Shown: positions 345-64,000, numbered from the stretch's first letter. The stretch is 64,000 nucleotides of DNA from a virus (IMGVR_UViG_3300021378_000010:1-64000); one strand, 5' to 3'. Notes: generated by a model not told the origin, from the sequence alone. Numbers and translations: made by a program.

Positions 345-352
345 TATTTATA
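345..352 (-). promoter_or_regulatory. T4-type late promoter TATAAATA
   Basis: Exact TATAAATA on the minus strand about 33 nt upstream of the methyltransferase ATG. Confidence 0.7.
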
Positions 353-1709: not shown

Positions 1710-1718
1710 TTTTTATCC

Positions 1719-4471: not shown

Positions 4472-4495
4472 GTTATTCTCTTTTGTTTATATTTA

Positions 4496-5854: not shown

Positions 5855-5886
5855 TCTATTTTAACTCTTTTATTAAGTTTAAACTA

Positions 5887-7260: not shown

Positions 7261-7271
7261 TTATTTTTACC

Positions 7272-10039: not shown

Positions 10040-10045
10040 AAAGTA

Positions 10046-10702
10046 TTACTCCGGTAATTCTGGTTCTGGCTCGGGCGGAACAATTTCTACTACATTAAGC
10101 TCTGCGAGAGTCGTGCATGCATCGATCTCTGTCGCCTTTGCTGCTTCCCAGTCAAACTGCGCTTGAATGTATGCTGCACCCGCAGCAACTACAGATCCAA
10201 GCTCAGACTTCGTGAGATTAAGCCAACCCTCTGGAAACTTCCAGTTAATCGTCTCACCATCAGCCATGATCGAGTACTTCTGAATGAACACGTTGCGGCC
10301 GTCACGAGAAGTGTCTAGAGAAACCGTGGTGCCCTTGAGCTCCATCGTGGTACCTACTACTTCACGGCGATAACGTTCTGCCGCAGCCTCGTTTTTAAGG
10401 TCTGATTTTACAAACTCGATCTCTTTGTCCTTGACACGAAACGTACCGAGAGCAACATCATTATCAAATGTCCAGAACGGACCGTATGTTCTCTCGATAC
10501 GAGTGTTGTGTTCCGGTGTCTCGTAACGAGCAGGCATGATCTTCGTGTCTACGTCGTAGACGATCGGTAGCTTATCAGCATCGGGTGCCAGTCTTGGAAC
10601 GTGACCCGATACTTTGATTCTTGCGAGAGCACCCTCAAATAGGCCGCGGTTCCATTTCATCGGACCTACGAGTACTCTCTCCTTATGAACTAGTGCGTAC
10701 AT
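10046..10702 (-). CDS. Tail-fibre-associated/assembly protein (DUF4376-like C-terminal domain)
   Basis: C-terminal AAAERYRREV-x-G...DT-x-R...WK...W-x-x-L...L-x-x-V...Q-x-x-F-x-WE...I-x-A-x-x-T-x-x-EL pattern typical of DUF4376 fibre-associated proteins. Has its own RBS and late promoter. Confidence 0.6.
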   Translation of the reverse strand: MYALVHKERVLVGPMKWNRGLFEGALARIKVSGHVPRLAPDADKLPIVYDVDTKIMPARYETPEHNTRIERTYGPFWTFDNDVALGTFRVKDKEIEFVKSDLKNEAAAERYRREVVGTTMELKGTTVSLDTSRDGRNVFIQKYSIMADGETINWKFPEGWLNLTKSELGSVVAAGAAYIQAQFDWEAAKATEIDACTTLAELNVVEIVPPEPEPELPE

Positions 10703-10726
10703 TTGAGTTTAACTCCTTTTTGTTTC

Positions 10727-10734
10727 TATTTATA
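10727..10734 (-). promoter_or_regulatory. T4-type late promoter TATAAATA
   Basis: Exact motif 25 nt upstream of ATG 10702. Confidence 0.7.
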
Positions 10735-10740
10735 TTCATA

Positions 10741-12090
10741 TTAAAGACTAAATTGTTGAATACCAATTGCATTACAACACGCCCCGGCATCGACACAAAT
10801 CCAGCTTGTACTTGAAGATACTTCTTGCACTGGAGAAGAATAATATAAGGTGCCATATAGCGCAAGATTTCCTTTGGAATTAAATCCCCAACTCCAAAGA
10901 GTACCATCTGTTTTAACACCAAAACCACTGTAATCGTTTCCACAAACATCACACCAATTTGTACTTGAAGATACTTCTTGAACTGGCGAAGAATGATTTA
11001 CGCAAGTTGGAGTTATCAGCTGTCCATATATAGCCGAACCTCCAGACCAAAGAGTACCATCAGTTTTTATTCCAAAAACAGCAATAGATGAAACATTTAC
11101 TTTACACCAATTAGAACTTGAAGATACTTCTTGAACTGGCGAAGAATAAGCTACGTATACAGTATTTTGCCATTGCGAAGTAGAGCCCCAAGTCCACAAA
11201 GTTCCGTCTGTTTTTATACCAGCAGAAGAATCGCGATTTGTACTAGCAAAACACCAATTAGAACTTGAAGACACTTCTTGAACTGGTGATGAATAAGCTA
11301 TTGTACTATTTACTCCAAGCGAACCAACTCCATTTTGGCCAAACCCCCAAAGTGTTCCATTATTTTTAAGACCCAATACGGAAAAAGATAAAAGCATAGA
11401 ACTAAAAATACAACACCAATCTGTACCAGCAGTAATTTCTTGAGTGGGTCCAGATTTATTTAAAGTATCGTTTGTTGCTATATTACCAAACGAATTTCTA
11501 CCCCAACCCCAAAGAGTACCATCGTTTTTAATTGCCGAGGTTGAATTTGCTCCTATATCTAAATAACACCAATTTGTACTTGAACAAGCTTCTTGAACCG
11601 GTGATGAAACCATATAAGTAGCAAGTGTGCAATTTATCCCAAGCTGGTAATATGAGCTATTGCACGCCCAATTCCAAAGAGTGCCATTAGTTTTTATTCC
11701 GCCGGCTGTGTTGAGACCGAGAGATACAGATATCCAATTACTTGCAGATACTTCTTGTACTGGAGATGAGTAGCAAATGATATCATTTGTACCAAGTACT
11801 CCACATTTATTATAACCCCAACCATATAACTTATTTAAAACTTGTGTCTGAAGAGTGATCCAACCGTTTGCAGCGTTCGCCCAGTAAACTGTCTTCTCGT
11901 CCTGTACATAGTAGAGATGACCTACCGATTCTGAAGCAGTAGGAAGACTTGCAAAAGTGTCAACGACCTGAACGATGCCAGTCTTAAGCTCTGTCAGCAT
12001 CTTTGAATACTCGAGCAGCTCCAACTCAGTCGAGGAGCTGTTCATTTTATCGAGTATTGCTTGTTCTATATTGTGTACGTTGATACTCAT
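10741..12090 (-). CDS. RCC1-like beta-propeller repeat protein, class B N-terminus
   Basis: RCC1 repeats; MSINVHNIE...ELELLEYSKML...TFASLP...GHLYYV. ATGA overlap with the upstream gene. Confidence 0.85.
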   Translation of the reverse strand: MSINVHNIEQAILDKMNSSSTELELLEYSKMLTELKTGIVQVVDTFASLPTASESVGHLYYVQDEKTVYWANAANGWITLQTQVLNKLYGWGYNKCGVLGTNDIICYSSPVQEVSASNWISVSLGLNTAGGIKTNGTLWNWACNSSYYQLGINCTLATYMVSSPVQEACSSTNWCYLDIGANSTSAIKNDGTLWGWGRNSFGNIATNDTLNKSGPTQEITAGTDWCCIFSSMLLSFSVLGLKNNGTLWGFGQNGVGSLGVNSTIAYSSPVQEVSSSSNWCFASTNRDSSAGIKTDGTLWTWGSTSQWQNTVYVAYSSPVQEVSSSSNWCKVNVSSIAVFGIKTDGTLWSGGSAIYGQLITPTCVNHSSPVQEVSSSTNWCDVCGNDYSGFGVKTDGTLWSWGFNSKGNLALYGTLYYSSPVQEVSSSTSWICVDAGACCNAIGIQQFSL

Positions 12091-13433
12091 GGTTCGTTGA
12101 AACCTTTTATAGTTTGTTTAATACTCGAAATAAACGACGATCCTATGCCTACTTGGTACCAATTTGTTGAAGATGTGATTTCTTGAACCGGTGAGGATCT
12201 ATCAATGGTAGTTCCATCGCCGATCTGTCCAGCAACATTCCACCCCCACGCTAATAATTGCCCAGACGTCTTCACCGCAGCTGTGTTTACGGCATAAGCA
12301 CATACTTGGCACCAGTCAGTTGAAGATGTGATTTCTTGAACTGGCGAAGAATAGCATAACCCGTTTCCAGTTCCAGTACGTCCAAGGTTACCGCTACCCC
12401 ATACCCATAATGTGTTATCTGTTTTTAACGCAGCAGAATGTTGTTCTGCCGCACTCGATTGACACCAATCGGTTGAAGATGTGATTTCTTGAACTGGCGA
12501 AGAATAGCATAATGTGTCTCCAGTTCCTATTGCTCCTGGAATATTTCTACCCCAGCCCCAGAGAGTACCATCTGTTTTTATGGCTAAAGTATGATATTGG
12601 CTTGCGCTTACTTGAGACCAATCTGTCGAAGACGATATTTCGCGAACTGGAGAAGATTTATTAATGATAGTTTCATCACCGATCTGCCCAGCTGCGTTGC
12701 ATCCCCACAACCACACTTGTCCAGTAGTTTTTACCGCTACCGTAAATTCACCTCCTGCGGCTTGACACCAATCAATTGAAGATGTAAGTTCTTGAATTAG
12801 AGTACAATTATTTATGCTAGCTGCGCCATTTCCAATTTGACCACCATTACCAAGGCCAGACGACCAAAGAGTACCGTCGGTTTTTATAGCAGCAGTATGG
12901 TTTGTTCCTGGTGCTATGTAACACCAAGTTGCATCGGAAAAATATTCTTGTACAGGAGAGGAAAAATTCGAAATACTATTATTGCCAAGACGGCCTTGCG
13001 CACCGCATCCCCATCCCCAAAGAGTGCCGTCGGTTTTTATGGCTAATACATGTCTATCCCCTGTACCTAATTGACTCCAATCGCCTGAAGTGATTTCTTG
13101 AATTGGAGAAGAACTTCTTACTGTTGCACCGTTTCCTATTGTTCCAATGTCGCCGAAACCCCAACTAAATATTGGCGTTTTTGCTATAGTACATGTGCTA
13201 TCATAACTGTTAGTCCACTCTTCACCATCTGAATAACGATAAGCACCAATGTCTTCAACAAATATCATACGACCCTTGTTACACGAAGCAACCGGTAGCA
13301 CTGAAGTGCTCGCAACGGAATAGACTGTGTTTGAAGACTTCACTCCGCTCACTTGAGCTAGGTTCAACTCTGACGGAGAACCTGCTAAACAGCTATTAGA
13401 TTGATTGATTAAGCACTTTGTGCTAATTGGCAT
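12087..13433 (-). CDS. RCC1-like beta-propeller repeat protein, class A N-terminus
   Basis: RCC1 repeats; MPIST...NKGRMIFVEDIGAYRYSDG; ends GFNEP. Confidence 0.85.
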   Translation of the reverse strand: MPISTKCLINQSNSCLAGSPSELNLAQVSGVKSSNTVYSVASTSVLPVASCNKGRMIFVEDIGAYRYSDGEEWTNSYDSTCTIAKTPIFSWGFGDIGTIGNGATVRSSSPIQEITSGDWSQLGTGDRHVLAIKTDGTLWGWGCGAQGRLGNNSISNFSSPVQEYFSDATWCYIAPGTNHTAAIKTDGTLWSSGLGNGGQIGNGAASINNCTLIQELTSSIDWCQAAGGEFTVAVKTTGQVWLWGCNAAGQIGDETIINKSSPVREISSSTDWSQVSASQYHTLAIKTDGTLWGWGRNIPGAIGTGDTLCYSSPVQEITSSTDWCQSSAAEQHSAALKTDNTLWVWGSGNLGRTGTGNGLCYSSPVQEITSSTDWCQVCAYAVNTAAVKTSGQLLAWGWNVAGQIGDGTTIDRSSPVQEITSSTNWYQVGIGSSFISSIKQTIKGFNEP

Positions 13434-49977: not shown

Positions 49978-50643
49978 TTATTCGCCTTTCTGATATGTGG
50001 ATTTAGTATCGATGCCTACAAAGTAAGTGACGTCGTCGCTTTTAAACTCGGAAATACCTTTAGCACAGAGAGTCACGTGGTAGTCACCGGGAAGAAGTTT
50101 TAGATTATCTGTTTTGATAATGATGGTAAATTTGTCGTTCGTTTCACCAATCTCTACACCAAATGTATCAGCAGTTGGATTGGCGCTATCTACCGCACGA
50201 AGGAAGCACTTTCCATCTTCGCCAACGAAAGCAATTTCGCTAAACTGAAGAACACCAGCAGCCTTGAGAACCGACTGCATGTCTTCCCAGGATACATCGA
50301 TTTCAACGTCGTTTGAAGGGATTTTGATTTCTTTATTGGGCGGTGTATGAATCATAGATACATCTGCAAAAACATATTTGGTCTTACGGCGACCTTCAGA
50401 AATTGTAAAGAACTTATCATGAAATTCGACGTCAGGGTTTTGATAAAGACCTACGATCGAAAGGAAACGCGAAAGATCATAAATGCAAGCATCAGATGGA
50501 ATTTCATCTGGAATATTAGCAATTGCAACAAGAGTCTTTTCAGGCGTAATTGTTTTGAGTACATTGCCTTCTGACATCAAAATAGATTTATTGATTGAAG
50601 AGAAGCTTTTGAGGATGGTAAGAGTACGATCAGAAAATTTCAT
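49978..50643 (-). CDS. Sliding clamp gp45
   Basis: MKFS-x-x-T-x-x-ILK-x-F-x-x-IN-x-SI...A-x-I...IYDL-x-x-FL...NLKLLPGDY-x-V. Synteny 45-44-62-regA. Confidence 0.93.
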   Translation of the reverse strand: MKFSDRTLTILKSFSSINKSILMSEGNVLKTITPEKTLVAIANIPDEIPSDACIYDLSRFLSIVGLYQNPDVEFHDKFFTISEGRRKTKYVFADVSMIHTPPNKEIKIPSNDVEIDVSWEDMQSVLKAAGVLQFSEIAFVGEDGKCFLRAVDSANPTADTFGVEIGETNDKFTIIIKTDNLKLLPGDYHVTLCAKGISEFKSDDVTYFVGIDTKSTYQKGE

Positions 50644-50666
50644 AGTGTATAACACTCCTTTTGTGG

Positions 50667-51811: not shown

Positions 51812-52429
51812 CTATAAGTCGTTTTCAATACGAACAATTTTTTGCATTCTCAAGACATCAGCTAAAACATCCCAAGCGCTGTCGTGTTCAACAAATACCT
51901 TTGCCCAATGCGCTTCGTCATCTACTGGAATAAAGCCATTCTTTTTTGGAAAATCGAGTTTAGCATCGATGTAAGTTCGAATGTCTCGCACTTTCCAATG
52001 AGGAAAATATTGCTTGAACATTTCATTTTTTCCTTCAGCAGCAAAAATACGGTCAAGGATTACTGGATCAAACGTATTTGATCGAGACCACCAGTAATCA
52101 ATTTTTCCAAAATCGTTAAGATAAGAAACAAGTTGAGTGATGAATTCCTTTACTGTAAGATCGTCTTTTCTAGGAACAATATTTTTTCGTGCATCGCTTG
52201 GCAAAGACTGCCACCACTCTACAGTATCTTTATATACCACCCAGTCGTAATTGTCAACCTGATTTTTCACTGAAAGCTTAAATTTTTTCACGAGTGATAT
52301 ATCTTCAGCCGAATAAGGTTTGTTTGAAACAAACTTTTCAGTATCTACTACGATAAATGAAAAGTCAACTACTGCGCAATTTTGTGCAGGCTGTCCGAGA
52401 GTTTCGCAGTCAATAAAACAATGCTTCAT
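51812..52429 (-). CDS. DEDD 3'-5' exonuclease (DexA-like)
   Basis: IDCETLG, W-x-R-x-x-x-FD, RDIRT and H-D-x-x-x-D. Confidence 0.82.
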   Translation of the reverse strand: MKHCFIDCETLGQPAQNCAVVDFSFIVVDTEKFVSNKPYSAEDISLVKKFKLSVKNQVDNYDWVVYKDTVEWWQSLPSDARKNIVPRKDDLTVKEFITQLVSYLNDFGKIDYWWSRSNTFDPVILDRIFAAEGKNEMFKQYFPHWKVRDIRTYIDAKLDFPKKNGFIPVDDEAHWAKVFVEHDSAWDVLADVLRMQKIVRIENDL

Positions 52430-53652
52430 GTCATAAAATCCGTCAAATCTGTGTTACTTTCTTTTTCTCTGATTGCACCATTGAGATTGCTTTGAATCAT
52501 GTATGATGCACGTTCCATTGGTCGTTCTCCATTGATCGTAGCAAGTACTTCAGTCGCCATGTCTTTCGCAGTTTTGAATGGAACATTTTGACAAATATGG
52601 TTTATGTTCTTTCTTTCGTCAAGAAGTTCATAATCTTGAGGAAGACCCATAATCGTCATTGCTTCTCGAAAGTTGATATAGCGATCTTCGAGATGGTGTG
52701 TTACTACGAAAGGCATGTGTACTACAAACGCACCGATGTGATCTACTGGAATTAGCGTTCCGCGCATCATTACACCTTTACCACTTGTCAACTTTGCATG
52801 TCGACGATCGCACCGATCTGCTTCTCTATCAAGACCTTGCGATCTCATCCACTTACCGACTTGATCATAATTAATACCTTGTTCGAGCATCTCTCCTTCA
52901 ACATTATATGAAGGTCTTGTATGATCTTTTACAGAAGCAGCAAAGTCAACGTGACTCATACCACCTTTAATCTCAGTGAGATAAAAACGATAGTATGGAT
53001 CGTCTTGAGAAGGAATTTTTTTATTGATTGGCTCGACTTGAAAGTTACTCTTTACGCTTTCAAGCAGTTCACGGATAGTTGGATACTGCGTATTAAACCT
53101 GCTAAAAACTGGAACAGAATTATCAAAAGCGTCTCTACGCCAGAAGAAGTAAAATGTTCTACGACGGATCTGAGGAGAACCATGAAGAAGAGATTTAGTC
53201 ACATAAATTGTCATATTGTATCCAGCTGCATCACTAATCTGACGCAACTTGTCTCGCATAAATTTACCGACATTAGTAGCAAGTGCAGGTGCGTTTTCAC
53301 CCCAAAGAACTTTTGGACGAACGTTTTCTAAAACGTGCCGTGTAGTCTTTTCCATCCATTGGTTATTTTGATTGTGTTCTCCATAACTTTTATGATAAGA
53401 ACTAAGTCCTGCGCAAGGACATACTGAAGAAACTACGTCTACTGATTCTGTCGTAATTGGCGCATTCTCGCTATCAAGTACATGATAAGGAATGTCATAG
53501 CCGTCCTTTCTGTAATGGTTCAATAGATGCTGTTCGTTTGACGCGAATGCACCATAGCTCATAATATATTCTGGCTTTACGCCATACGCTTCATCTGAAG
53601 CAAGTAGTTCACCGCCAATAAGCGGCACAATTCCTGCATGTTTTATTGTCAT
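52426..53652 (-). CDS. DNA cytosine-C5 methyltransferase-fold protein with degenerate SAM-binding motif I
   Basis: Motif IV CPCAGLS, VI GENAP, VIII HGSPQIRRRTFY, IX REAMTIMGLP, X CQNVP. Motif I reads IVPLIGG instead of FxGxGG. Confidence 0.8.
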   Translation of the reverse strand: MTIKHAGIVPLIGGELLASDEAYGVKPEYIMSYGAFASNEQHLLNHYRKDGYDIPYHVLDSENAPITTESVDVVSSVCPCAGLSSYHKSYGEHNQNNQWMEKTTRHVLENVRPKVLWGENAPALATNVGKFMRDKLRQISDAAGYNMTIYVTKSLLHGSPQIRRRTFYFFWRRDAFDNSVPVFSRFNTQYPTIRELLESVKSNFQVEPINKKIPSQDDPYYRFYLTEIKGGMSHVDFAASVKDHTRPSYNVEGEMLEQGINYDQVGKWMRSQGLDREADRCDRRHAKLTSGKGVMMRGTLIPVDHIGAFVVHMPFVVTHHLEDRYINFREAMTIMGLPQDYELLDERKNINHICQNVPFKTAKDMATEVLATINGERPMERASYMIQSNLNGAIREKESNTDLTDFMT

Positions 53653-53666
53653 TTTTCATCCTTTAA

Positions 53667-54692
53667 TCAAGCGAAGAAATTTTCGATGCTCATAATTTGT
53701 TTTTCAACACCCGTCCAATGCGGGTAATGTTCTCTTGAAAGGTGTATGGATCTTGGTTTTTCCATATAGGCAAAATCAAGTTCATCACGATCATTGAGTA
53801 GATAATCTGTCCATCGGATTATGCTATATTTATATTCGATGTAATCATTGAAATGATCGCGAACTTTTTTTCGCTCTGACCACGATCCCCAGAAAGGTTT
53901 TCCATCATAATAACCAGTTTTAGGAACTACACGGCTCTCGTTTTCAATTGGAAGCAGTTCATAAATCTTTGCTCCAAGTTCACGAGCTTGTTCAATATAA
54001 CGATCTGCAAGAGCTTCGGCATTTTTGATCAAATCACCTTCAAGACGGCAGAGATGATGACGAACATCAATATTGCCAAAATAAAACTCAAGTTCTTCAA
54101 CAGCATCTATGTCAACAAAAGACTTAAGACCCTGGTTGAGTGCTCCATTCAAAGTCTTGAATACAGTAGAATTGAAAGACCAACCGGGTCTATACATACA
54201 GATCGCATGACTGTCACCAATCACAAGTTTTTTTGTAGGATTGACGTGATTTACTTTTACGGCTTCACGTTCCATCCTACCCCAGTTGTCAATGTCGAGC
54301 TCATGCCAAATAGGTTCAATGTAGATATTATTTTTCTTTGCGAGTTCAAATTTACGACGGAGTAGTCGTTCATACTCAGGAAAGTCGCAATTCAAACTAT
54401 AAATTGGACCTTTATACTTTGATACCTTTACGACATTTTCTGAATATGGACAGTTTTGAAAGCCACCAAAAATATTCATTGCCGCTGGCTTTGTTCTAGA
54501 AGTTCCGTTATCTGCATGGTACATATAAACAGCATCGTACTCGTTGAGATCTTTGATTCTTCCTTCAAAATCAACTTCAGCATCATGACCAAGTTCTTTC
54601 AGCTGATTGCAGTAAATAACTGCTGGTGATGTTCTGTGCGAGTATACTAAACTCGTGAGAGTATTAGTTGGTGAAACGACTGCAATTTTCAT
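53667..54692 (-). CDS. Beta-glucosyltransferase N-domain-like + SGNH hydrolase/acyltransferase fusion
   Basis: N-half MKIAVV...DLNEYD...NIFGG...KYKGPIYSLNCD resembles the T4 BGT N-domain as recalled. C-half has IGDSH (block I), FGNID (block III) and SIHLS (block V). Confidence 0.55.
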   Translation of the reverse strand: MKIAVVSPTNTLTSLVYSHRTSPAVIYCNQLKELGHDAEVDFEGRIKDLNEYDAVYMYHADNGTSRTKPAAMNIFGGFQNCPYSENVVKVSKYKGPIYSLNCDFPEYERLLRRKFELAKKNNIYIEPIWHELDIDNWGRMEREAVKVNHVNPTKKLVIGDSHAICMYRPGWSFNSTVFKTLNGALNQGLKSFVDIDAVEELEFYFGNIDVRHHLCRLEGDLIKNAEALADRYIEQARELGAKIYELLPIENESRVVPKTGYYDGKPFWGSWSERKKVRDHFNDYIEYKYSIIRWTDYLLNDRDELDFAYMEKPRSIHLSREHYPHWTGVEKQIMSIENFFA

Positions 54693-54704
54693 AATATAAA
54701 TCTC

Positions 54705-55796
54705 CTAGCAAAAAAAGCTGTCAACCGTAGTGCAGCTGAGTCTTGACTCAAGGTCAAGAGCAATTTTATCAAAAGCATCAAACGTAAGAGGCAAAATGCG
54801 TTTTTCTTGAAGCTTTGGTGTATCTTTGATACCAAGAAAACAGTTGAACTGGCAAAATGTAATTTCTGCGCCAAAGGTAGTCATATGGCCATTACGTTCA
54901 AGGTTTTCTGAGTAAAATTTTCTTGCAGTATCATCAGGAAACTCAAAAAAATCATATTGATGACTACGAACTGACATTACGATCTTTTCCATAATATCAT
55001 TTTTATTTAGCTTAACGTTTGGAAATACGAAAGCCATACCACGATGGGCGCCAGGACCGACCAGACAATAGTCATCATCTTCATCAATATTTGGAAGATC
55101 TTCGCACCGAGAAAAGTTACAAGGTGGATGGTAAGAAAAATAAGGTCCAATACCGCGATGAGTTTTTAGCCATTCGCAGACATCGCCAAGAGAGTTTTTA
55201 GGATCTTGTACGACATCGCTCATTCCTAGCTTATCAAGTTGATCCATCCAACGAATCATATGCGATAGTTTGAATTGAACTGTAGGATCATCTTCTTCTT
55301 CACGAACAAAGTTTCGAGCCGCGGTCTGAAGCGAAGTCTGAAGCTGAGTAGCACCCCAAACCTTAAGCTTGCGAATATTATCGTCTAGGTTTCTGTTTAC
55401 AGTTTGATAATAATCACCTTTGAGTCGATATTCATCGAAGTCAATAATCTTAGAATAATCTGCAGTATCTGAAGCTACAAGAGTAAGCGTAGGCATGCCA
55501 ACAAATTTTACCGCCATTGCATTTAGAATTTTGTTACGCATTGAGGTATCTTGACCAAAGACATGATTCTCTAGCCAAAATACCTCAGCGTGTTTAGAAC
55601 GGTTTGGATTCCAATACGAAACTTCTTGACGCATCGCAGATCCAAATTCAGGATCAATCTCATATTCTTCAATCCTGCCGGTTTCACGGAGAGTTTCACG
55701 CTTGAAGAAATCCAAGACCCATTTATTGAAATATTTGAATGCATCTGGATCAGCAATAGACTTGAGTTCGTCTACAGTAAAGATTTCTTTTTTCAT
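54705..55796 (-). CDS. aGPT-Pplase / amino-acid:DNA transferase-like base-modifying enzyme (HhH glycosylase fold)
   Basis: KRE...Y-x-N-x-x-R, HhH motif LKTHRGIGPYFSY, VGPGAHRGM, and E-x-x-x-CQF. Confidence 0.7.
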   Translation of the reverse strand: MKKEIFTVDELKSIADPDAFKYFNKWVLDFFKRETLRETGRIEEYEIDPEFGSAMRQEVSYWNPNRSKHAEVFWLENHVFGQDTSMRNKILNAMAVKFVGMPTLTLVASDTADYSKIIDFDEYRLKGDYYQTVNRNLDDNIRKLKVWGATQLQTSLQTAARNFVREEEDDPTVQFKLSHMIRWMDQLDKLGMSDVVQDPKNSLGDVCEWLKTHRGIGPYFSYHPPCNFSRCEDLPNIDEDDDYCLVGPGAHRGMAFVFPNVKLNKNDIMEKIVMSVRSHQYDFFEFPDDTARKFYSENLERNGHMTTFGAEITFCQFNCFLGIKDTPKLQEKRILPLTFDAFDKIALDLESRLSCTTVDSFFC

Positions 55797-55799
55797 ATT

Positions 55800-56183
55800 T
55801 TATTTCTCCGTTAAGTCATGTTGTAGCATGACTATATTTATGCTAGGCATAATCTTCCGAATTTCTTCTGCTTGAATAGGATCATCTTCAAAGTGAATAC
55901 CAAAACGATATCCCATTTCTTCAAGATAAAACAGTGTACGACCTTTATGCTGCCCAGATGATTTACGAGTTTTTTCGTCAAATTTCAGTGGGTTCATGTA
56001 TACTGTATTATAGATTCCACGATTTGTCAACATATTTTTTGTAACTTCGCCTTCATCATCACGAGAACGTCCAGTAATGATTACGTCGTCGGGCCCGGGA
56101 AAGACGCCCGTAAAGGCGTCTCCCATGTAAATAACTCCATCAATATCAAAAGAATTGATAACTTTGTTAGGAATATCATTCAT
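55800..56183 (-). CDS. HAD-superfamily phosphatase (cap-less)
   Basis: FDIDGV (DxD), ITGRS, K and FEDD motifs I-IV. Start ATG 56183 overlaps the MIPS stop by 8 nt. Confidence 0.8.
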   Translation of the reverse strand: MNDIPNKVINSFDIDGVIYMGDAFTGVFPGPDDVIITGRSRDDEGEVTKNMLTNRGIYNTVYMNPLKFDEKTRKSSGQHKGRTLFYLEEMGYRFGIHFEDDPIQAEEIRKIMPSINIVMLQHDLTEK

Positions 56184-57471
56184 AGTCTGTCTTCCCATCT
56201 TGGTATGTGTAAGGAAGATTTTTTGCAATTGGCTTTTCAGCAGCAAGCTGTGGTCGGGTCATTGAAGTAAGTTCACGGCGAGCAAGCGCATCGCATTCAA
56301 ACTTTGCATCAGATGAAGAAAGTTGTACAGGCGGCGTCTTCTGCGTATACGCGCTAGGCCCACGAAGAATTCCAACAATACCCATTTCAGAAGCTACTCG
56401 ACAGAAGCGAACGGCAGAAATAACTACACCACTCGAGTTTGGCGAGTCCTGGCAAGAAAGTCGAGCTTGAAGTGTATAACGAGCACCACCAAAGCCAAAC
56501 GCTACGATGTCAAGATCTGCAATTTTATTATCAGAACCAACATACGTTCCACCAGGCTTCTGAAGAACTGTCAACGAAGGACCTGCATAAAGTGTGTCAC
56601 CAGCATAGCTTACACCACGAACGGTATTTTGACCCTTGAGAACGTTTTCCTTTGAAATATGTTTATTATGAAGACGTTCTTTTTCAGCCATATTGATGAA
56701 GTCAGTATTTGAAGTAACACCAGAACGAATATGTTCTTTACCCTGAGTAGCACCACCGATGCGATTTGTTTGAGTATGATATGTTACATGCAGGCCGCCG
56801 TCAATCATCGCACCTTGTAGAACTTCAGACAAGCGGGATGCACCCCAAGCAGATCGCATATCAGAACCAACAAAAGTAAGACCAGCATCGATAAAGCGCT
56901 GCTCAATTTTCTGAGTTTCTTTAGTATCAATAATTGTTGGAATACAGTTTACGAAGTGTACTCCAGCTTTCAAAGCAACATCGATATAGAAACGAGTTGC
57001 TTTTTCAGAACCAACAGGAAGATAATTGACAAGGACTTCAACTCCGGTCTTTTTTACCAATTCAACAATATCATCAAATGATTTTGCAGCTTCAGCACCA
57101 GTTCTGAACGAAACTTCTTCAGGATAGTATTCCATCCATTCTGCAACACCATCGAGTGTCGGGCTAGAGTAAACCATTGCGCCCTTCGTAACTGCGCCTG
57201 GAGAATTACCACCAGTTTCAAGAATCTCCGCAACGTGATCCATAGCACAGTTTGGTGAAGCACGAAGAGCTTCTACAAGAGGCTTGTTAACCTTACGGCG
57301 ATCTACATCAAATCCAATGACGAACTCGACGTCACCCGAAACATATCCGCCAATTTCTGGATACATCAGGCCAACTTTATCATTCGGGTTTTCATTATAG
57401 TATTGCACACCCTCTACGATAGATTTAGCGCAGTTACCCACACCAATAATACCAATTTTGATCTTTTTCAT
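56176..57471 (-). CDS. ino1: myo-Inositol-1-phosphate synthase
   Basis: GVGNCAKS, FDVD-x-x-KV, LVNYLPVGSE, FVNCIP, GSDMRS-x-x-GA, NTDF-x-NM, K-x-ISK, DNK, DSPNS-x-GV and K-x-PP, as in the bacterial/archaeal MIPS family. Confidence 0.92.
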   Translation of the reverse strand: MKKIKIGIIGVGNCAKSIVEGVQYYNENPNDKVGLMYPEIGGYVSGDVEFVIGFDVDRRKVNKPLVEALRASPNCAMDHVAEILETGGNSPGAVTKGAMVYSSPTLDGVAEWMEYYPEEVSFRTGAEAAKSFDDIVELVKKTGVEVLVNYLPVGSEKATRFYIDVALKAGVHFVNCIPTIIDTKETQKIEQRFIDAGLTFVGSDMRSAWGASRLSEVLQGAMIDGGLHVTYHTQTNRIGGATQGKEHIRSGVTSNTDFINMAEKERLHNKHISKENVLKGQNTVRGVSYAGDTLYAGPSLTVLQKPGGTYVGSDNKIADLDIVAFGFGGARYTLQARLSCQDSPNSSGVVISAVRFCRVASEMGIVGILRGPSAYTQKTPPVQLSSSDAKFECDALARRELTSMTRPQLAAEKPIAKNLPYTYQDGKTDYE

Positions 57472-57589
57472 TTGATTTTCCTTTTCTGTTATATCAGTTT
57501 AACGACTATATTTGGCCGGAAGGTCCGGGGTAGGTCGAGTGCAATCCAGCACTAAGGTTACCATCAGTCTAGATGGTGTTGTATTTATA
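57472..57589 (-). promoter_or_regulatory. Late promoter and structured 5' leader of the MIPS operon
   Basis: TATAAATA at 57582-57589, followed by hairpins ACCATC/GATGGT, AGTGC/GCACT and CGAC..CCGG/CCGG..GTCG before the AAGGA RBS. Confidence 0.5.
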
Positions 57590-57596
57590 GCCGAAC

Positions 57597-58682
57597 TCAA
57601 GCAAACATATCAAAAATTGTAGTTTCTTTGGTATTTTTTTGTCTGTCAATTGTTTGCTCAAACATATTCTGCAAAGACTTAATCCAATTTTCTTTTGAGT
57701 GCTTTTGTTTTGTGAGTTCAGATATTGCTATACGTTCATTATAATCCAAAGCCAGTAATTTGTCAACAACTTCTTTAAATGCAGCAGGACGAATATTTGA
57801 ACGAACTTTTGCAAGATGTTCTGGTTTTGCTGGAATACATTCAGAAGCGTGAGTATCTTTCGTATCAGTTGCTAATACTACAGGAACGCCTCGTGCAAGT
57901 GCTTCCAAAGCGGTAATACCCCAAGTTTCTGCAGGACATGTCGAAAAATAAACACGAGAACGAGCAAGCTTTTCCATGACATCTTTATGAGGAAGATTTT
58001 CAATTGTGTCCTGTGGATGTTTCCAGTGTTGATTAATATTGTAGTAATGTTTATTGGTAGCATCAACAAGGTTACTTGTTGTAGTCAGAATCAAACTGTG
58101 ATAGTTGTTTGAATGAGATAACTTGTGGTTCATATAAGGATTTTTGATTCTATTCATTCGTGCAATAGTCGTGATGTCATATTCCAGATCTTTGTATACT
58201 GGTTCATCACCATTACAAAACGCAGCGTTGATAAATCCGCCATTTAAATTAAGAGGGCATTCGTTGATACGCTGCGAAAGCTTATCCATGCCTTGAAATT
58301 GCCATGGGCTTACCATTGCAAGAGTACCACCCGTATCAATAAATTCTTTCATTTTTTCAATATGAAGAACTTTGCTAATTCCACCGGCAGCGGTATGACT
58401 AACCCATAAAATGGGAATGTTAAATACTTTTCGTATATTTCCAATTAGCGTATTACTATCGAAGTTTACCATCAGTACATCAGGATCATGCTGAATGATA
58501 GCTTGAGAAAGTTTTGTAGTTGTTCTACGCTTTTTGCGATCTTCTTCATTATAATAAAATGGAATCACTTCGCCAGGAAAATTCTGATAGATCAGTTGAA
58601 TAAAACGCTCAATGCCACCAGAAACGTGTGGACTGTCAAGATCATGCTCGTCAGTCATAAAAAATGGAATTAGTACTTTCAT
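57597..58682 (-). CDS. GT-B (GT4-like) glycosyltransferase
   Basis: SGGIERF at the N-terminus, AR-x-x-x-x-KN, and ETWGITALEALARGVPVV (E-x7-E motif). Confidence 0.85.
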   Translation of the reverse strand: MKVLIPFFMTDEHDLDSPHVSGGIERFIQLIYQNFPGEVIPFYYNEEDRKKRRTTTKLSQAIIQHDPDVLMVNFDSNTLIGNIRKVFNIPILWVSHTAAGGISKVLHIEKMKEFIDTGGTLAMVSPWQFQGMDKLSQRINECPLNLNGGFINAAFCNGDEPVYKDLEYDITTIARMNRIKNPYMNHKLSHSNNYHSLILTTTSNLVDATNKHYYNINQHWKHPQDTIENLPHKDVMEKLARSRVYFSTCPAETWGITALEALARGVPVVLATDTKDTHASECIPAKPEHLAKVRSNIRPAAFKEVVDKLLALDYNERIAISELTKQKHSKENWIKSLQNMFEQTIDRQKNTKETTIFDMFA

Positions 58683-59326
58683 ATTTTTACCTCATAATGT
58701 AACCGCCAATCTTCATATTCCTCGTCAAGAGTAACCCATTGGCATTTTGTATTTGTATGATTTGCTTCTTTGTTCCAAACTATCCAGCAATAAGCAATCA
58801 TGCCACCAATTTGGTCATTCTTATTTATGGGTTCTATATGATCGGCACTAAATTTTACTCTGTCTGACATGAATATTATATCACTTGGAGGGTTATTTGT
58901 AAACAATTTTTTTCTCTTTTTTCCTTCGAGAAAAGTAATACGAACAAACATTGCAACAAAATCATATTCATTGACAGCTTTTTCTGCTATTTTTCGAGGA
59001 AGATCTTGATGATATGGCGGATTTGTTACCAGGCCTTTTGCGTCAGAAGGTTTCTGAAGACTCATAAAGTCTGTATCAACAGTTATTGCGCATAGGCTAT
59101 TATCATACTCGTGAAGATCATAAGAACGAACATCATAACCGTGACGAAGCAGCTCAATAGATATGTTACCACGTCCAGCACAAGGCTCAACGATAACATG
59201 AGGTAGATTGACATATTTTTGTAAAACATAAGTTGCGAGTGGTGGTGTTGGATAAAAATCATTTTTTCTGCGGTTTGTATCTGTTTTTTTTACACCAACG
59301 TAAATATCTTTGAGATTATTGGCCAT
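58679..59326 (-). CDS. Amino (N6-A/N4-C) DNA methyltransferase-like protein
   Basis: DFYPTP, EPCAGRG, D-x-DF and TNPPY. Probable start ATG 59326. Confidence 0.75.
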   Translation of the reverse strand: MANNLKDIYVGVKKTDTNRRKNDFYPTPPLATYVLQKYVNLPHVIVEPCAGRGNISIELLRHGYDVRSYDLHEYDNSLCAITVDTDFMSLQKPSDAKGLVTNPPYHQDLPRKIAEKAVNEYDFVAMFVRITFLEGKKRKKLFTNNPPSDIIFMSDRVKFSADHIEPINKNDQIGGMIAYCWIVWNKEANHTNTKCQWVTLDEEYEDWRLHYEVKI

Positions 59327-60152
59327 ATCTAATATTTTGTTCCTTTTCACGATCGTCTAGTTTATACTCAGATCTATAACGAGAGTTAACGCTAATAACT
59401 TCTTCAAGTACAGAAAGATATACACCATTGAGTTTTGAAAAGGCAGAAATCGCGGCAGTATCCTTTGGAAAACAGCTTCCTCCAAAACCTCTTTTTCCGT
59501 CGGGTCCTGGAACCTTTGTGTGAGAATGTCCAATACGATCATCTTCTCCTATGGATCTAGAAACAACATTATATCGAGCATCGAGTGATTCTGTAAGTTC
59601 TTTCCATTGATTAAACCAAACAACTTTCATTGCAAGAAATGAATTGATCCCATATTTTACAAGACTTGCCTCAACTGGTGTCATGTAATGAAATGGTGCA
59701 GGATTGCAGTTTGAATTATACGTGTAAAGATCTTTTACCTTTTCTATGCGATGGATGTCTCCGCCAAGTACATGAAAATCTGGTTTCAAAAAATCTTCTA
59801 ACGCGTTTCTTTCTGTGAGAAATTCTGGGTTGTATACAAAATGATTATTATAACAAATTTCTTCTATTACGTCTGGTGTAATAGTCGACTTTACGATGAT
59901 TGTTGCATCTATATCACTCAGTTGATCCACAACAGTAGTTATGATATTTTTGTTTATCGAACCATCGTCATTCATCGGTGTTGGCACGCAAACAAATACA
60001 AACTCTGGATTAAAAGAAATCATTTCATCTATATCATGATGGCCCTTATAAGGATCTACAATCATAATGTCGTTGGTTTTGTTACGAAACCCAAATTCTA
60101 CAGCGTTTCCAACAAAGCCATAGCCTATAATTGCTATTTTTGTTTTATTCAT
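59316..60152 (-). CDS. UDP-glucose/GDP-mannose dehydrogenase family protein (short, lacks C-terminal domain)
   Basis: IIGYGFVG, FVCVPTP, KSTI-x-P, NPEFL-x-E, K-x-x-x-N-x-FLA-x-KV, D-x-RIG and GFGGSCFPKD. Confidence 0.88.
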   Translation of the reverse strand: MNKTKIAIIGYGFVGNAVEFGFRNKTNDIMIVDPYKGHHDIDEMISFNPEFVFVCVPTPMNDDGSINKNIITTVVDQLSDIDATIIVKSTITPDVIEEICYNNHFVYNPEFLTERNALEDFLKPDFHVLGGDIHRIEKVKDLYTYNSNCNPAPFHYMTPVEASLVKYGINSFLAMKVVWFNQWKELTESLDARYNVVSRSIGEDDRIGHSHTKVPGPDGKRGFGGSCFPKDTAAISAFSKLNGVYLSVLEEVISVNSRYRSEYKLDDREKEQNIRYGQ

Positions 60153-60621
60153 TTTCAAAGGCCCAGTGACGTTCGTTCATGTAAGTAAGCAATACGCCAG
60201 TTTCCTGATACATCGGCTTTGAAAGGTCGTTCCACTGAGTCTGCCACTTCTCAGGAGCATGCTCAGGATGCGTGATCACGACTCGTTTGATACCGGATTG
60301 GACAACATTCTTTGTACACTCAGCACAGACCGGTAGACCCCAAACATAAATCGTCGCATCCTTGACTGATACACCACTGTAGAGCGCATTCATCAATGCG
60401 TTCATCTCACCATGAACGATCAATGGATATTTCTGTTCACGATCGTTAAGACGCTCATCTGTATCTTCAATACCGCGAGGAAACCCGTTGTAGCCAGTCG
60501 CGAGGATGCGACGCTCATCATTTACAATCACTGCTCCGATGCGCGTGCTCGGATCCTTACTCCAGGTCGAGATCTCACGAGCAAGTTTCATAAAGCGGTT
60601 GTCCCACTTGGAGTTAATCAT
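60145..60621 (-). CDS. dCMP deaminase
   Basis: SKDPST-x-IGAVIV, GYNGFPRG, HGE-x-NA and PVCAEC zinc motifs. Confidence 0.92.
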   Translation of the reverse strand: MINSKWDNRFMKLAREISTWSKDPSTRIGAVIVNDERRILATGYNGFPRGIEDTDERLNDREQKYPLIVHGEMNALMNALYSGVSVKDATIYVWGLPVCAECTKNVVQSGIKRVVITHPEHAPEKWQTQWNDLSKPMYQETGVLLTYMNERHWAFENE

Positions 60622-61276
60622 TCATAAGCTCCTCAATGAACTTGAAGTGGCGCTCGTAGACGTGCAAGTTAGTCGCAGTCCAAATTAGATCACCAACCGC
60701 AACATTGAGATCTGCGGCAAGCATCTTTTGAACATGCATCGCCCAATGTACGTCGTTGTCATATCCAAACACAGCATCGTTGGATCGCATTAGGTAGTGA
60801 CTAATGAGCTTACCATCGCGTATCATAAAGGTGTTTGCGTATGTGCAGACGAAGTCAGACATACCATCTGCGCAGTAGTCGGTATGCATAGACGGGCGAT
60901 TGTAGATCATAACGGCACGACGACTGTTCGGGTTCTTCTGCAGCTCAGTCTTTACGTTTTCGTACTGACTGCCGTTTTCTTCTGACCAGATCAGATAGCC
61001 GTAGTTAGAATTGATCATGCCGTTAGAGTCAGATACTTGTTTCCAGATGGCAGGCGTATCACCAGGAATGTCTTCAACGTAACGAGACTGCGACTCATAC
61101 CACTGGAGTTCGCGTTCGATATATTCATAGTTTGGTTTGCGGATGATCCAATCCTCATCAGCAATAAACGACTCACCGATAAGCTCGATGGTCTTAACTC
61201 CGGTCTTATCAGTCACGAAATCCTGTTCTTTGTATTTTTGAATGAGCTTAGCTCGAATATCACTTACTGTTTGCAT
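60614..61276 (-). CDS. dCMP hydroxymethylase (T4 gp42-like, thymidylate synthase fold)
   Basis: Colinear with T4 gp42 as recalled: DKTGVKTIE, RELQWY, DIPG-x-TP-x-IW, INSNYG, SRR-x-x-MIY-x-RPSM, DGMSDF-x-CT, MRSND-x-VFG-x-x-ND and LHVY-x-RHF. The cytosine-specifying Asp (ND) is retained. Confidence 0.9.
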   Translation of the reverse strand: MQTVSDIRAKLIQKYKEQDFVTDKTGVKTIELIGESFIADEDWIIRKPNYEYIERELQWYESQSRYVEDIPGDTPAIWKQVSDSNGMINSNYGYLIWSEENGSQYENVKTELQKNPNSRRAVMIYNRPSMHTDYCADGMSDFVCTYANTFMIRDGKLISHYLMRSNDAVFGYDNDVHWAMHVQKMLAADLNVAVGDLIWTATNLHVYERHFKFIEELMND

Positions 61277-63468: not shown

Positions 63469-63939
63469 TTACTTAAAAATTTCTGGAAGTGATCCATGAT
63501 TGCCATCGTGGCTTGGAGCTTTCCAATCTTCTGGTTTGATTAGATCTGGTAGTCCAAATGGGTTGGGACGGCCCGGTTTTACGCCAGGAGTTTTGATTGA
63601 GTTTGCTTTATAAACTTGATCCCAAGCTACTTTGGTATCTACGCCAAATACATCAAGAGTGCCAATAGCGAAAACACATAGATCAATAAGACCATCTACA
63701 ACTTCTTCAGAATCAACTTTGTCTACGTCACCGATAAAAGCAAAATTTCCTTCATCATTAATTGCAAGTTCAAGGTCAGATGCTTGTGCAGTTTCGATCA
63801 ATTCTTCTAAACACATATTCAAACGAAAAGTAAGATACTTTTTCATAAGATCCTTATCGTGTTTGTTTTTTTCAAACCAGTCGTGCACTCCAAACTTATT
63901 GTGCATCATATACATATCATTGATCATATCAGCTGACAT
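63469..63939 (-). CDS. MazG-like all-alpha nucleoside-triphosphate pyrophosphohydrolase (candidate dCTPase)
   Basis: EEL-x-E and EEVVDGLIDL (E-x-x-E...E-x-x-D metal motifs), plus N-x-x-K...DLIKPEDW. Probable start ATG 63939. Confidence 0.75.
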   Translation of the reverse strand: MSADMINDMYMMHNKFGVHDWFEKNKHDKDLMKKYLTFRLNMCLEELIETAQASDLELAINDEGNFAFIGDVDKVDSEEVVDGLIDLCVFAIGTLDVFGVDTKVAWDQVYKANSIKTPGVKPGRPNPFGLPDLIKPEDWKAPSHDGNHGSLPEIFK

Positions 63940-64000
63940 TTTGTAATCCTTCCATTTCGCTTTCAATAGCTATGATCTCATCCTTAATAGAAAGCTTTAG

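Follow-up and report, generated by a model that had tools for sequence, protein, structure and literature searches.

The stretch IMGVR_UViG_3300021378_000010:1-64000 (hereafter the window) covers the opening 64 kb of an IMG/VR viral contig of 100.6 kb, whose completeness is put at about 48%. In it, a gene at 52426-53652 on the minus strand codes for a 408-residue protein having the fold and the catalytic residues of the DNA cytosine-C5 methyltransferases (C5-MTases) and, judging from the alignment of its relatives, a cofactor pocket that has been rebuilt rather than left to decay. This methyltransferase-like (MT-like) protein probably performs a non-methylation reaction on the phage's own modified DNA; as a tentative reading, we propose covalent Cys-C6 chemistry on 5-hydroxymethylcytosine (hmC) in nascent phage DNA, with a co-substrate other than S-adenosylmethionine (SAM). 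A preliminary description of the window had suggested that a C5-MTase was repurposed here for chemistry on hmC and, more specifically, that it acted as an hmC:inositol ligase. The general idea of a non-SAM reaction on hmC remains the best reading and is strengthened by the conserved altered pocket, the link to a gp42-type dCMP hydroxymethylase and the presence of a polymerase-like clamp tail, while the inositol ligase did not stand up. The elements of the MT-like open reading frame (ORF) are the following:

52426..53652, minus strand: MT-like ORF, C5-MTase fold with a putatively rebuilt cofactor pocket (ORF, PF00145, AF2 model)
53611..53631, minus strand: motif I equivalent, residues 8-14, IVPLIGG (canonical F-x-G-x-G-G)
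53527..53559, minus strand: motif II region, residues 32-42, S-Y-G-A-F-A-S-N-E-Q-H (YIMSY being residues 29-33)
53401..53424, minus strand: motif IV, residues 77-84, VCPCAGLS, with the catalytic Cys80 (canonical P-C-Q-x-F-S)
53287..53301, minus strand: motif VI, residues 118-122, GENAP (canonical E-N-V)
53158..53184, minus strand: motif VIII, residues 157-165, H-G-S-P-Q-I-R-R-R (QxRxR)
52579..52602, minus strand: motif X equivalent, residues 351-358, N-H-I-C-Q-N-V-P
52429..52455, minus strand: C-terminal tail, residues 400-408, ...N-T-D-L-T-D-F-M-T, a sliding-clamp-binding-type peptide

The C5-MTase fold attributed to the protein in the preliminary description was confirmed by structure prediction. 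The AlphaFold model, built on 117 relatives, is confident (predicted local distance difference test, pLDDT, 96; predicted template modelling score, pTM, 0.93), has the two-domain C5-MTase fold, and superimposes its residues 1-376 on residues 10-325 of M.HhaI (Z 26.3, root-mean-square deviation 3.0 A, 294 aligned residues). M.HhaI and M.HaeIII are the closest solved structures, followed by DNMT1, M.MpeI and CmoX (Z 23.9); the Foldseek search with the same model gave E=4e-14. At the sequence level, the Pfam DNA_methylase profile (PF00145) was matched with E=2.4e-16 and 60.5 bits against a threshold of 22, only over profile positions 57-320 of 324, with motifs I and II of the protein falling outside the match. 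The NCBIfam dcm model (TIGR00675) gave 35.1 bits against a cut-off of 100.65, skipping both ends of the profile, versus 350.8 bits over the full profile for the E. coli Dcm control. The hhalign comparison of the MT-like family with the single E. coli Dcm sequence was likewise confined to motifs IV-VIII, and a protein-atlas search with PF00145 excluded did not retrieve any usable match. According to these data, the fold and the catalytic motifs place the protein among the relatives of the C5-MTases, and its SAM-binding motifs and the curated NCBI cut-off show that it is not a canonical member.

The conservation of each motif was counted on 117 cluster representatives, down to 27% identity, and the residues were mapped onto HhaI, HaeIII and CmoX through a profile search of PDB sequences. 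The PC nucleophile (CPCAGLS), ENA and QxRxR, read as intact in the preliminary description, are all present and near-invariant in the family. CPCAGLS aligns with FPCQAFS of HhaI, PPCQSWS of HaeIII and PPCSAFS of CmoX and holds the Pro-Cys pair of motif IV (P79-C80), with Cys80 in 116/117 representatives. In motif VI, which aligns with the ENV of the same three enzymes and whose gENAp stands opposite mENVk, E119 is found in 117/117, N120 in 115/117 and A121 in 113/117 sequences; in motif VIII, Q161 is found in 115/117, and both R163 and R165 in 117/117. Cys80, Glu119 and these two Arg are the residues that serve in flipping and activating the cytosine. Two substitutions lie beside the target base, i.e., Ala for Gln in PCQ and Ala for Val in ENV.

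The same mapping bore out the departures from the SAM-binding motifs that had been noticed earlier. IVPLIGG lacks the Phe of motif I and carries Leu in place of its first Gly; P10 and L11 are kept in 116/117, G13 in 117/117 and G14 in 115/117 representatives, and position 9, occupied by I, V, Q or M throughout, is aromatic in none. At position 33, the last residue of YIMSY, where no acidic residue had been evident, Y/F/W is found in 110/117 sequences and Asp or Glu in none. In the AlphaFold secondary structure, beta2 spans residues 30-32 and helix B residues 34-49, so that Tyr33 lies at the C-terminal end of beta2 and occupies the place of the acidic residue that binds the SAM ribose (motif II Glu). 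The region also holds an insertion of about four residues, with F36 in 108/117, N39 in 109/117 and D/E40 in 113/117; N39-D40 align after the HaeIII motif II Glu. As for motif X, the earlier reading of CQNV in place of GN(A/S)V agrees with the profile-to-PDB alignment, in which C354-Q355-N356-V357 pair with G-N-S/A-V of HhaI and HaeIII. Q355 (115/117), N356 (113/117) and V357 (113/117) are strongly conserved; the family reads i-c-Q-N-V-p versus i-g-N-A-V-p in HaeIII, f-G-N-S-V-v in HhaI and v-g-R-M-V-P in CmoX, and Q355 aligns with HhaI N304 and CmoX R350. Moreover, Trp99 (98/117) stands at the HhaI Leu100 position.

In this fold, two residues stack on adenine, namely the Phe of motif I and the one that follows the Glu of motif II; this Glu itself binds the ribose, adenine N6 is bound by the Asp of motif III, and the transferred group is faced, and selected, by N304 in HhaI and R350 in CmoX (PMC12783734). 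The motif I Phe, the motif II Glu and the adenine-stacking residue following it are all absent from the MT-like protein. Since conservation across the 117 representatives is as strong at the unusual positions as at the catalytic ones, the pocket appears to be rebuilt. Furthermore, the amino-methyltransferase encoded nearby at 58679-59350 keeps FYPTPP, EPCAGRG, an acidic residue after beta2 (SYD) and NPPY; the lineage thus retains SAM motifs where SAM is used, which argues against a lineage-wide drift as the origin of the altered pocket. The protein therefore shares with M.HhaI, M.HaeIII and E. coli Dcm the fold, the motif order, the catalytic Cys, the ENV Glu, QxRxR, motif IX and a target-recognition domain (TRD) between motifs VIII and IX. 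Unlike them, it has P-L-I-G-G in motif I, an aromatic residue for the motif II Glu, PCA, ENA, Trp at the L100 position of HhaI, CQNV and a C-terminal extension of about 30 residues ending in a clamp-type tail; in addition, its family is phage-only and always accompanied by a dCMP hydroxymethylase.

The bulky hydrophobic residues L11, Y33, F36 and W99 might also fill the old SAM site instead of forming a ligand site. In this case, the protein would play a donor-free role, i.e., it would remove the hydroxymethyl group (hmC to C plus formaldehyde), deaminate hmC via the 5,6-dihydro adduct, or act as a flipping or binding factor without turnover, marking or shielding particular sites on the phage DNA. 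C5-MTases without SAM deaminate cytosine, and the presence of the clamp tail is in line with such a role. Dehydroxymethylation of hmC by C5-MTases without SAM is also on record (PMC11347137). However, the conservation of the polar residues N39, D/E40, H42, Q355 and N356 matches that of the catalytic ones, suggesting a bound ligand; newly made C, or a 5-hydroxymethyluracil (hmU):G pair, would seem detrimental to a genome designed to be free of C; and pure binding would not need the invariant Cys80, Glu119 and both Arg. We consider a donor-free role quite improbable.

The favoured reaction on hmC presupposes that the phage makes this base. The preliminary description had called it an hmC phage, and this premise was borne out by the thymidylate synthase (TS) homolog at 60614-61276, which matches the T4 dCMP hydroxymethylase (PDB 1b49) with E=1e-72 and, in the motif MRSNDAVFGYDND, carries Asp at the positions equivalent to both E. 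coli ThyA D169 and N177 (Asp/Asp). Some T4-like TS homologs make 5-hydroxy-dCMP, and these carry Asn at the ThyA D169 position (PMC13326640). By these residues, the homolog of the source phage is of the cytosine-specific hydroxymethylase type; the 5-hydroxycytosine pathway was ruled out, given the Asp, not Asn, at the D169 position.

To what extent the MT-like gene and the gp42-type gene travel together was checked in two samples of loci. The first one comprises 80 related IMG/VR loci. Of these, 51 leave at least 4.5 kb of room, and 49 of them have a gp42 homolog upstream of the MT-like gene; where the room is at least 8 kb, all 30 loci have one. Among the 63 TS homologs typed, 62 are Asp/Asp. 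The gp42 homolog at about 2598 in IMGVR_UViG_3300044940_000473 (L006) is the sole one of the 63 with Cys at the ThyA D169 position (MRSNCAVHG), the position that separates hydroxymethylases from 5-hydroxy-dCMP synthases. In the second sample, drawn from distant clades (100 loci), every one of the 55 TS homologs found is Asp/Asp, and a TS homolog was found within the flanks in 27 of the 35 loci of at least 15 kb. Five apparent exceptions to the link were found: two larger contigs harbor an Asp/Asp TS homolog elsewhere, and the other three are fragments 15-21% complete. The link, with a cytosine/hydroxymethyl-type TS homolog, holds on contigs G003 and G007 too; in cyanophage S-TIM54 a "ThyA" with Asp at the N177 position lies two genes from the MT-like gene, and on a 425-kb contig (L101) the gp42-type gene is about 6 kb away. 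In Pseudoalteromonas phage vB_Psh_XG4 (L003, 100-6580), the TS homolog is followed by a fusion of a nucleotidyltransferase and an APH kinase, two glycosyltransferases (GTs) and then the MT-like gene. No counter-example was found where the context sufficed; the MT-like gene is strictly linked to a gp42-type dCMP hydroxymethylase. Moreover, the T4-type DNA alpha-glucosyltransferase (AGT), the TET-associated glycosyltransferase (TAGT) and other DNA glycosyltransferases in the adjacent slot suggest that hmC is indeed present in the DNA of these phages.

RB69 and DLP3 have arabinosyl-cytosine clusters similar to that of XG4, whose TS, however, has the Asp169-type residue; this phage, cultured and unannotated, would be a convenient experimental system. 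The homologs in XG4 and in cyanophage S-TIM5, both cultured, show 26-30% identity and retain the signature of the family.

Regarding the distribution of the family, a search of 5.8 billion proteins retrieved 1920 MT-like homologs, a 50% clustered library contains 372 clusters at E<=1e-30, and at least 588 IMG/VR contigs carry a relative; the motif pattern is far beyond chance. A scan of about 185,000 cellular species genomes, which detects only members with NHICQNVP or GENAP-type patterns, retrieved only 18 loci, all of them on contigs of metagenome-assembled genomes (MAGs) with inconsistent taxonomy and none in an isolate genome. Two of these loci are too short for neighbours; among the other 16, the T4-like hmC module is present in 14, the remaining two being L101, with the gp42-type gene mentioned above, and an outlier, L100. 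Literature searches found no published characterisation of the family.

The T4-like contigs with the hmC module (L086-L102) had been binned to taxa as unrelated as Rhodobacteraceae, Planctomycetaceae, Verrucomicrobiales, Melainabacteria and Pacearchaeota, and one Rhodobacteraceae bin contains three different ones; this binning likely reflects contamination of the bins by phage DNA. Four relatives (P0237, P0176, P0197 and P0211), lying on mRNA-sized metagenomic contigs, have long low-complexity C-terminal tails with a CXXC zinc finger or C2H2-like motifs and keep the PLIGG, SY, CPCAGLS and QNVP signature. They may derive from eukaryotes or giant viruses.

The related loci share a conserved frame, composed of a MazG-like NTPase, gp42, the dCMP deaminase, a variable slot, the MT-like gene, sometimes DexA, a GT2-like gene and gp45. 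In the window, this frame and the cassette filling its slot are represented as follows:

63469..63966, minus strand: MazG/PRA-PH-type NTP pyrophosphatase (PF01503, E=4e-6), upstream of gp42 in 38/80 loci; probable dCTPase (gp56 role)
60614..61276, minus strand: gp42-type dCMP hydroxymethylase, the constant genomic partner (PDB 1b49, E=1e-72)
60145..60621, minus strand: dCMP deaminase (PF00383, E=3e-21), in 48/53 related loci
53667..58682, minus strand: variable cassette of the source phage, in only 11-19 of 49-72 related loci
57597-58682, minus strand: GT4, cassette member
56176-57471, minus strand: inositol-1-P-synthase-like protein, cassette member
55800-56246, minus strand: HAD-like protein, cassette member
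54705-55796, minus strand: HMUDK_hel/aGPT-Pplase-like protein without P-loop, cassette member
53667-54692, minus strand: BGT-N-like/phrog_13881 protein, cassette member
49978..50655, minus strand: gp45 sliding clamp, proposed docking partner (PF09116 and phrog_223, E=3e-70)

The content of the slot between the dCMP deaminase and the MT-like gene varies greatly (L005-L084). It harbors the T4-type AGT in 16 loci, a TAGT directly upstream of the MT-like gene and without any TET in 13 loci, and an unknown 368-residue family (phrog_14998) in 19 loci; GT8, GT4, UDP-galactopyranose mutase (GLF), a sugar epimerase and an APH-type kinase were also found. The slot is thus a variable glycosyltransferase or glyco-diversification island, and from its gene content these phages appear to decorate hmC with varied glycans. 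The inositol-1-P-synthase (MIPS) cassette occurs in only 11 of 51 loci, and the pocket residues of the MT-like protein are identical whatever the cassette. The constancy of the enzyme and of its pocket while the sugar genes vary argues against inositol as the co-substrate and for a function independent of the sugar.

These data bear directly on the hmC:inositol ligase of the preliminary description, according to which inositol (or inositol-phosphate), supplied by the neighbouring MIPS and phosphatase genes, would be held in the old SAM site and joined to hmC. The inositol-1-P-synthase-like and HAD-like genes do share one operon with the MT-like gene in the window, and Asn, Asp, Gln, His and aromatic residues abound in the conserved pocket, as they may in sugar or polyol sites. 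However, with other sugar genes (AGT, TAGT, GT8, GT4 or GLF) or unknown ones in the slot of most loci, the ligase was rejected as a general function, and we regard it as very improbable. The GT2-like neighbour (phrog_1574) was also rejected as a dedicated partner of the MT-like enzyme, having no clamp tail and adjoining gp45 in cultured phages that lack the MT-like gene.

A further clue comes from the C-terminus. MT-like residues 377-408 lie outside every MTase structural match and end in DLTDFMT, and the gp43 polymerase of the same contig (G000:C1:64131-66668) ends in NTIEDFFA. Among all the ORFs of at least 60 residues in the whole 100-kb contig (n=195), only gp43 and four modification enzymes (5/195) have the tail pattern [ST]-[ILV]-x-[DNS]-F-[FM]-x. 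Clamp-type tails are present on three of the cassette proteins at 53667..58682, i.e., SIENFFA in the BGT-N-like, TVDSFFC in the HMUDK_hel-like and TIFDMFA in the GT4 protein; the metabolic enzymes of the cluster are without the gp43-type tail. In the close MT-like family, 83 of the 118 full-length members end in L-x-x-[FLYM]-[FLMIV], and many distant members end in ...K-x-L-F, reminiscent of beta-clamp motifs. Cassette enzymes from other loci (TAGT, GT4 and BGT-like) show SLEGFFG- or DLEDFFV-type tails.

When three gp45 chains were modelled together with MT-like residues 375-408, the complex scored 0.52 versus 0.04 for the best control, with at least 57% contact agreement between runs and a partner pLDDT of at least 42. 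We take this as weak support: of the 80 solved complexes used for calibration, 58 reached the mark, as did 2 of the 110 mismatched pairs; at values up to 0.60, it was reached by only 7 of those 80 and by both passing mismatches. Moreover, the RB69 clamp with a polymerase peptide is a solved complex of the same kind, so the pass may reflect memory. The docking of the MT-like tail on the gp45 clamp is likely; this, if true, would imply that the substrate is the phage's own replicating, hmC-containing DNA.

On these grounds, the following mechanism can be depicted. The MT-like enzyme would ride the gp45 clamp and act on newly replicated phage DNA, in which cytosine is hmC already. Cys80 would add to C6 of the flipped hmC, with Glu119 protonating N3; the resulting enamine would expel the hydroxyl of the 5-CH2OH group, giving an exocyclic methylene, an intermediate familiar from TS chemistry. 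A nucleophile X held in the rebuilt pocket would then capture the methylene, yielding 5-(X-methyl)cytosine, and Cys80 would be eliminated. Given the constancy of the enzyme and its pocket next to changing sugar genes, X would be a common metabolite or small molecule and not specifically inositol. Precedents for the single steps exist in vitro: according to Liutkeviciute and colleagues, in works of 2009 and 2011, SAM-free C5-MTases reportedly couple thiols and selenols to hmC. In addition, M.MpeI forms covalent complexes with 5hmC and 5-hydroxycytosine (5OHC) DNA and dehydroxymethylates 5hmC (PMC11347137). In its widest form, the proposal would be that thousands of uncultured T4-like and other phages carry a clamp-riding, SAM-free "hmC C5-substituent transferase" producing new 5-(X-methyl)cytosine bases alongside glycosyl-hmC; so wide a claim is, at present, doubtful.

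Several observations weigh against a non-SAM reaction on hmC. The pocket was assessed from sequence, secondary structure and alignments rather than from geometry. Asp60 (motif III), located after beta3, is kept in 82/117 representatives, and the acidic D/E40 lies seven residues beyond the canonical motif II position; an unusual mode of SAM binding would be compatible with both. The large, clade-variable target-recognition region (residues ~172-322) resembles that of sequence-specific methylases. The glycosyltransferases of the same phages need the hmC hydroxyl; hence, any substitution of it could affect only part of the hmC or particular sites. The MT-like enzyme is missing from T4 and other cultured hmC phages. 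Lastly, one relative carries a fused CXXC zinc finger, which is a binding domain for unmodified CpG, and in the gut MAG locus L100 the MT-like gene adjoins an N6/N4 methylase gene on a 61-kb contig that has no TS homolog; both cases give a hint of unmodified C as a possible substrate. Contig C124 of the same MAG carries an Asp/Asp gp42 adjacent to a dNMP-kinase-like gene, but it is a separate contig whose association is unproven.

Some of these points would suit a genuine SAM-dependent C5 methyltransferase with an unusual cofactor site, acting on residual phage cytosine or on host DNA, or converting hmC into 5-methylcytosine (5mC) at specific sites by dehydroxymethylation and methylation, as M.MpeI, which dehydroxymethylates and remethylates 5hmC, can do (PMC11347137). 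In its favour are the fold with all the catalytic motifs, the PF00145 score above threshold, the retained Asp60 with D/E40 nearby, the methylase-like TRD, the DNA methylase adjoining L100 and the CXXC fusion. Nevertheless, the motif I aromatic residue, the first motif I Gly and the motif II Glu are lost family-wide, the HhaI L100 and N304 positions are changed too, the score is far under the curated dcm cut-off, and the SAM enzyme in the same operon keeps its canonical motifs. Furthermore, an orphan methylase has no reason for a strict tie to a dCMP hydroxymethylase, and in the cellular scan the family is absent from isolate genomes and from restriction-modification contexts. We judge a SAM-dependent methylase to be unlikely; in particular, both the loss of three canonical SAM contacts and the strict link to hmC synthesis speak against the methylation of residual unmodified C, the alternative considered in the preliminary description.

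Residual cytosine might instead be the target of a "proofreader" acting at the DNA level through one-carbon chemistry, that is, a post-replicative counterpart of gp42 turning unmodified C (from misincorporation, primers or repair patches) into hmC. Cys-C6 catalysis would be combined with a non-SAM donor, such as 5,10-methylene-tetrahydrofolate, placed in the rebuilt pocket. The intact catalytic set for cytosine attack and the pocket unlike that for SAM would agree with such an activity, and the strict gp42 link would be expected as well, because the base produced has to agree with that used in the remainder of the genome. The function would not change with the sugar cassette, the clamp tail would suit the scanning of nascent DNA, and the CXXC-fused relative points to unmodified C as a family substrate. 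C5-MTases are also said to add aldehydes to C in vitro, giving hmC (Liutkeviciute and colleagues, again in 2009). However, phages with the MT-like gene and without gp42 would be expected, and none was found where the context sufficed; the Ala substitutions in PCA and ENA would enlarge the base pocket, which better fits a base bulkier than C; no folate-binding signature was recognised in the MT-like protein; and T4 manages with its dCTPase alone. Such an enzyme has, in our opinion, only a small chance of being the correct reading.

Coming back to the favoured reaction on hmC with a non-SAM co-substrate, a close natural parallel is CmoX (PDB 8yf3), a phage DNA cytosine-C5 carboxymethyltransferase using carboxy-SAM (Cx-SAM) (PMC12783734). 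It is the only PDB match to the MT-like protein by single-sequence search (Z 23.9 in the comparison with the model) and is a natural example of how a phage C5-MTase fold can be adapted to a different donor, the change lying at the same position of motif X (R350, equivalent to Q355). CmoX keeps its adenosyl contacts (F25, E47, F48 and D69), SPPC and a CmoA partner, whereas the MT-like protein has lost those contacts and has VCPC and Gln355. CmoA (TIGR00740), the Cx-SAM synthase, had no match in the 100-kb contig (~48% complete). A CmoX/Cx-SAM identity was accordingly ruled out, with no SPPC, Gln and not Arg at position 355 and no CmoA match in the contig.

The MT/TET (5mYOX)/glycosyltransferase systems (PMC8256090; bioRxiv 10.1101/2023.12.21.572611) also have a C5-MTase-fold gene beside DNA glycosyltransferases. 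There, the MT component is a genuine SAM methylase that feeds TET, and hmC arises post-replicatively, whereas in the MT-like phage hmC is made pre-replicatively via gp42 and the SAM motifs are altered. A TET/JBP dioxygenase (PF12851) had no match in the 100-kb contig (~48% complete), which speaks against the MT-TET reading.

With T4 gp42 and TS chemistry the proposed reaction shares only the concept (Cys attack on pyrimidine C6, exocyclic methylene at C5), the folds being unrelated; gp42 acts on a mononucleotide with folate, whereas the MT-like reaction would take place on DNA. The pathways based on 5-hydroxymethyldeoxyuridine (5-hmdU) kinases and aGPT-Pplases share the concept that a nucleophile replaces the activated 5-hydroxymethyl oxygen on DNA, but aGPT-Pplases need pyrophosphorylated hmU and no Cys adduct. 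To our knowledge, there is no natural case of a nucleophile replacing the hydroxyl of hmC in DNA.

As regards the genomic context, the contig, from a marine phage, carries several markers of T4-like phages (the gp45 clamp, the gp44/62 clamp loader, RegA, a baseplate protein and the gp43 polymerase). The MT-like ORF lies inside a packed, co-oriented operon; it starts 15 nt past the stop of the preceding gene, and its own stop shares 4 nt with the start of a DexA-like exonuclease gene. The cassette protein at 54705-55796 combines a 5-hmdU-DNA-kinase helical domain (PF18723), the lack of a P-loop and a clamp-type tail in a phage of the cytosine (hmC) type; no DNA kinase able to activate the hydroxymethyl group was seen in the 64-kb window. 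The gene at 58679-59350, which codes for a small canonical amino-methyltransferase within the modification operon (phrog_799, E=3e-41; no Pfam match), was found in about 11 related loci. Far from this operon, nine consecutive ORFs of about 450 residues at 348-13433 (minus strand) are tandem paralogs sharing 34-45% identity, with matches to RCC1-like beta-propellers (phrog_4219), and may represent a diversified host-recognition or structural family.

A C5 methylase has no substrate in DNA already substituted at C5, yet the MT-like enzyme is widespread and has been conserved with its catalytic residues intact. Were it to carry out new chemistry on hmC, or to employ a new one-carbon donor on DNA, it would add a further step to phage DNA hypermodification and provide a natural counterpart of the SAM-free reactions of C5 methyltransferases in vitro, as well as a candidate tool for hmC labelling or sequencing. 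If the protein were instead an odd SAM methylase, it would redefine the residues needed for SAM binding in the C5-MTase fold. Lastly, a clamp-tethered set of DNA-modifying enzymes, if true, would show how phages couple the modification of their DNA to its replication.

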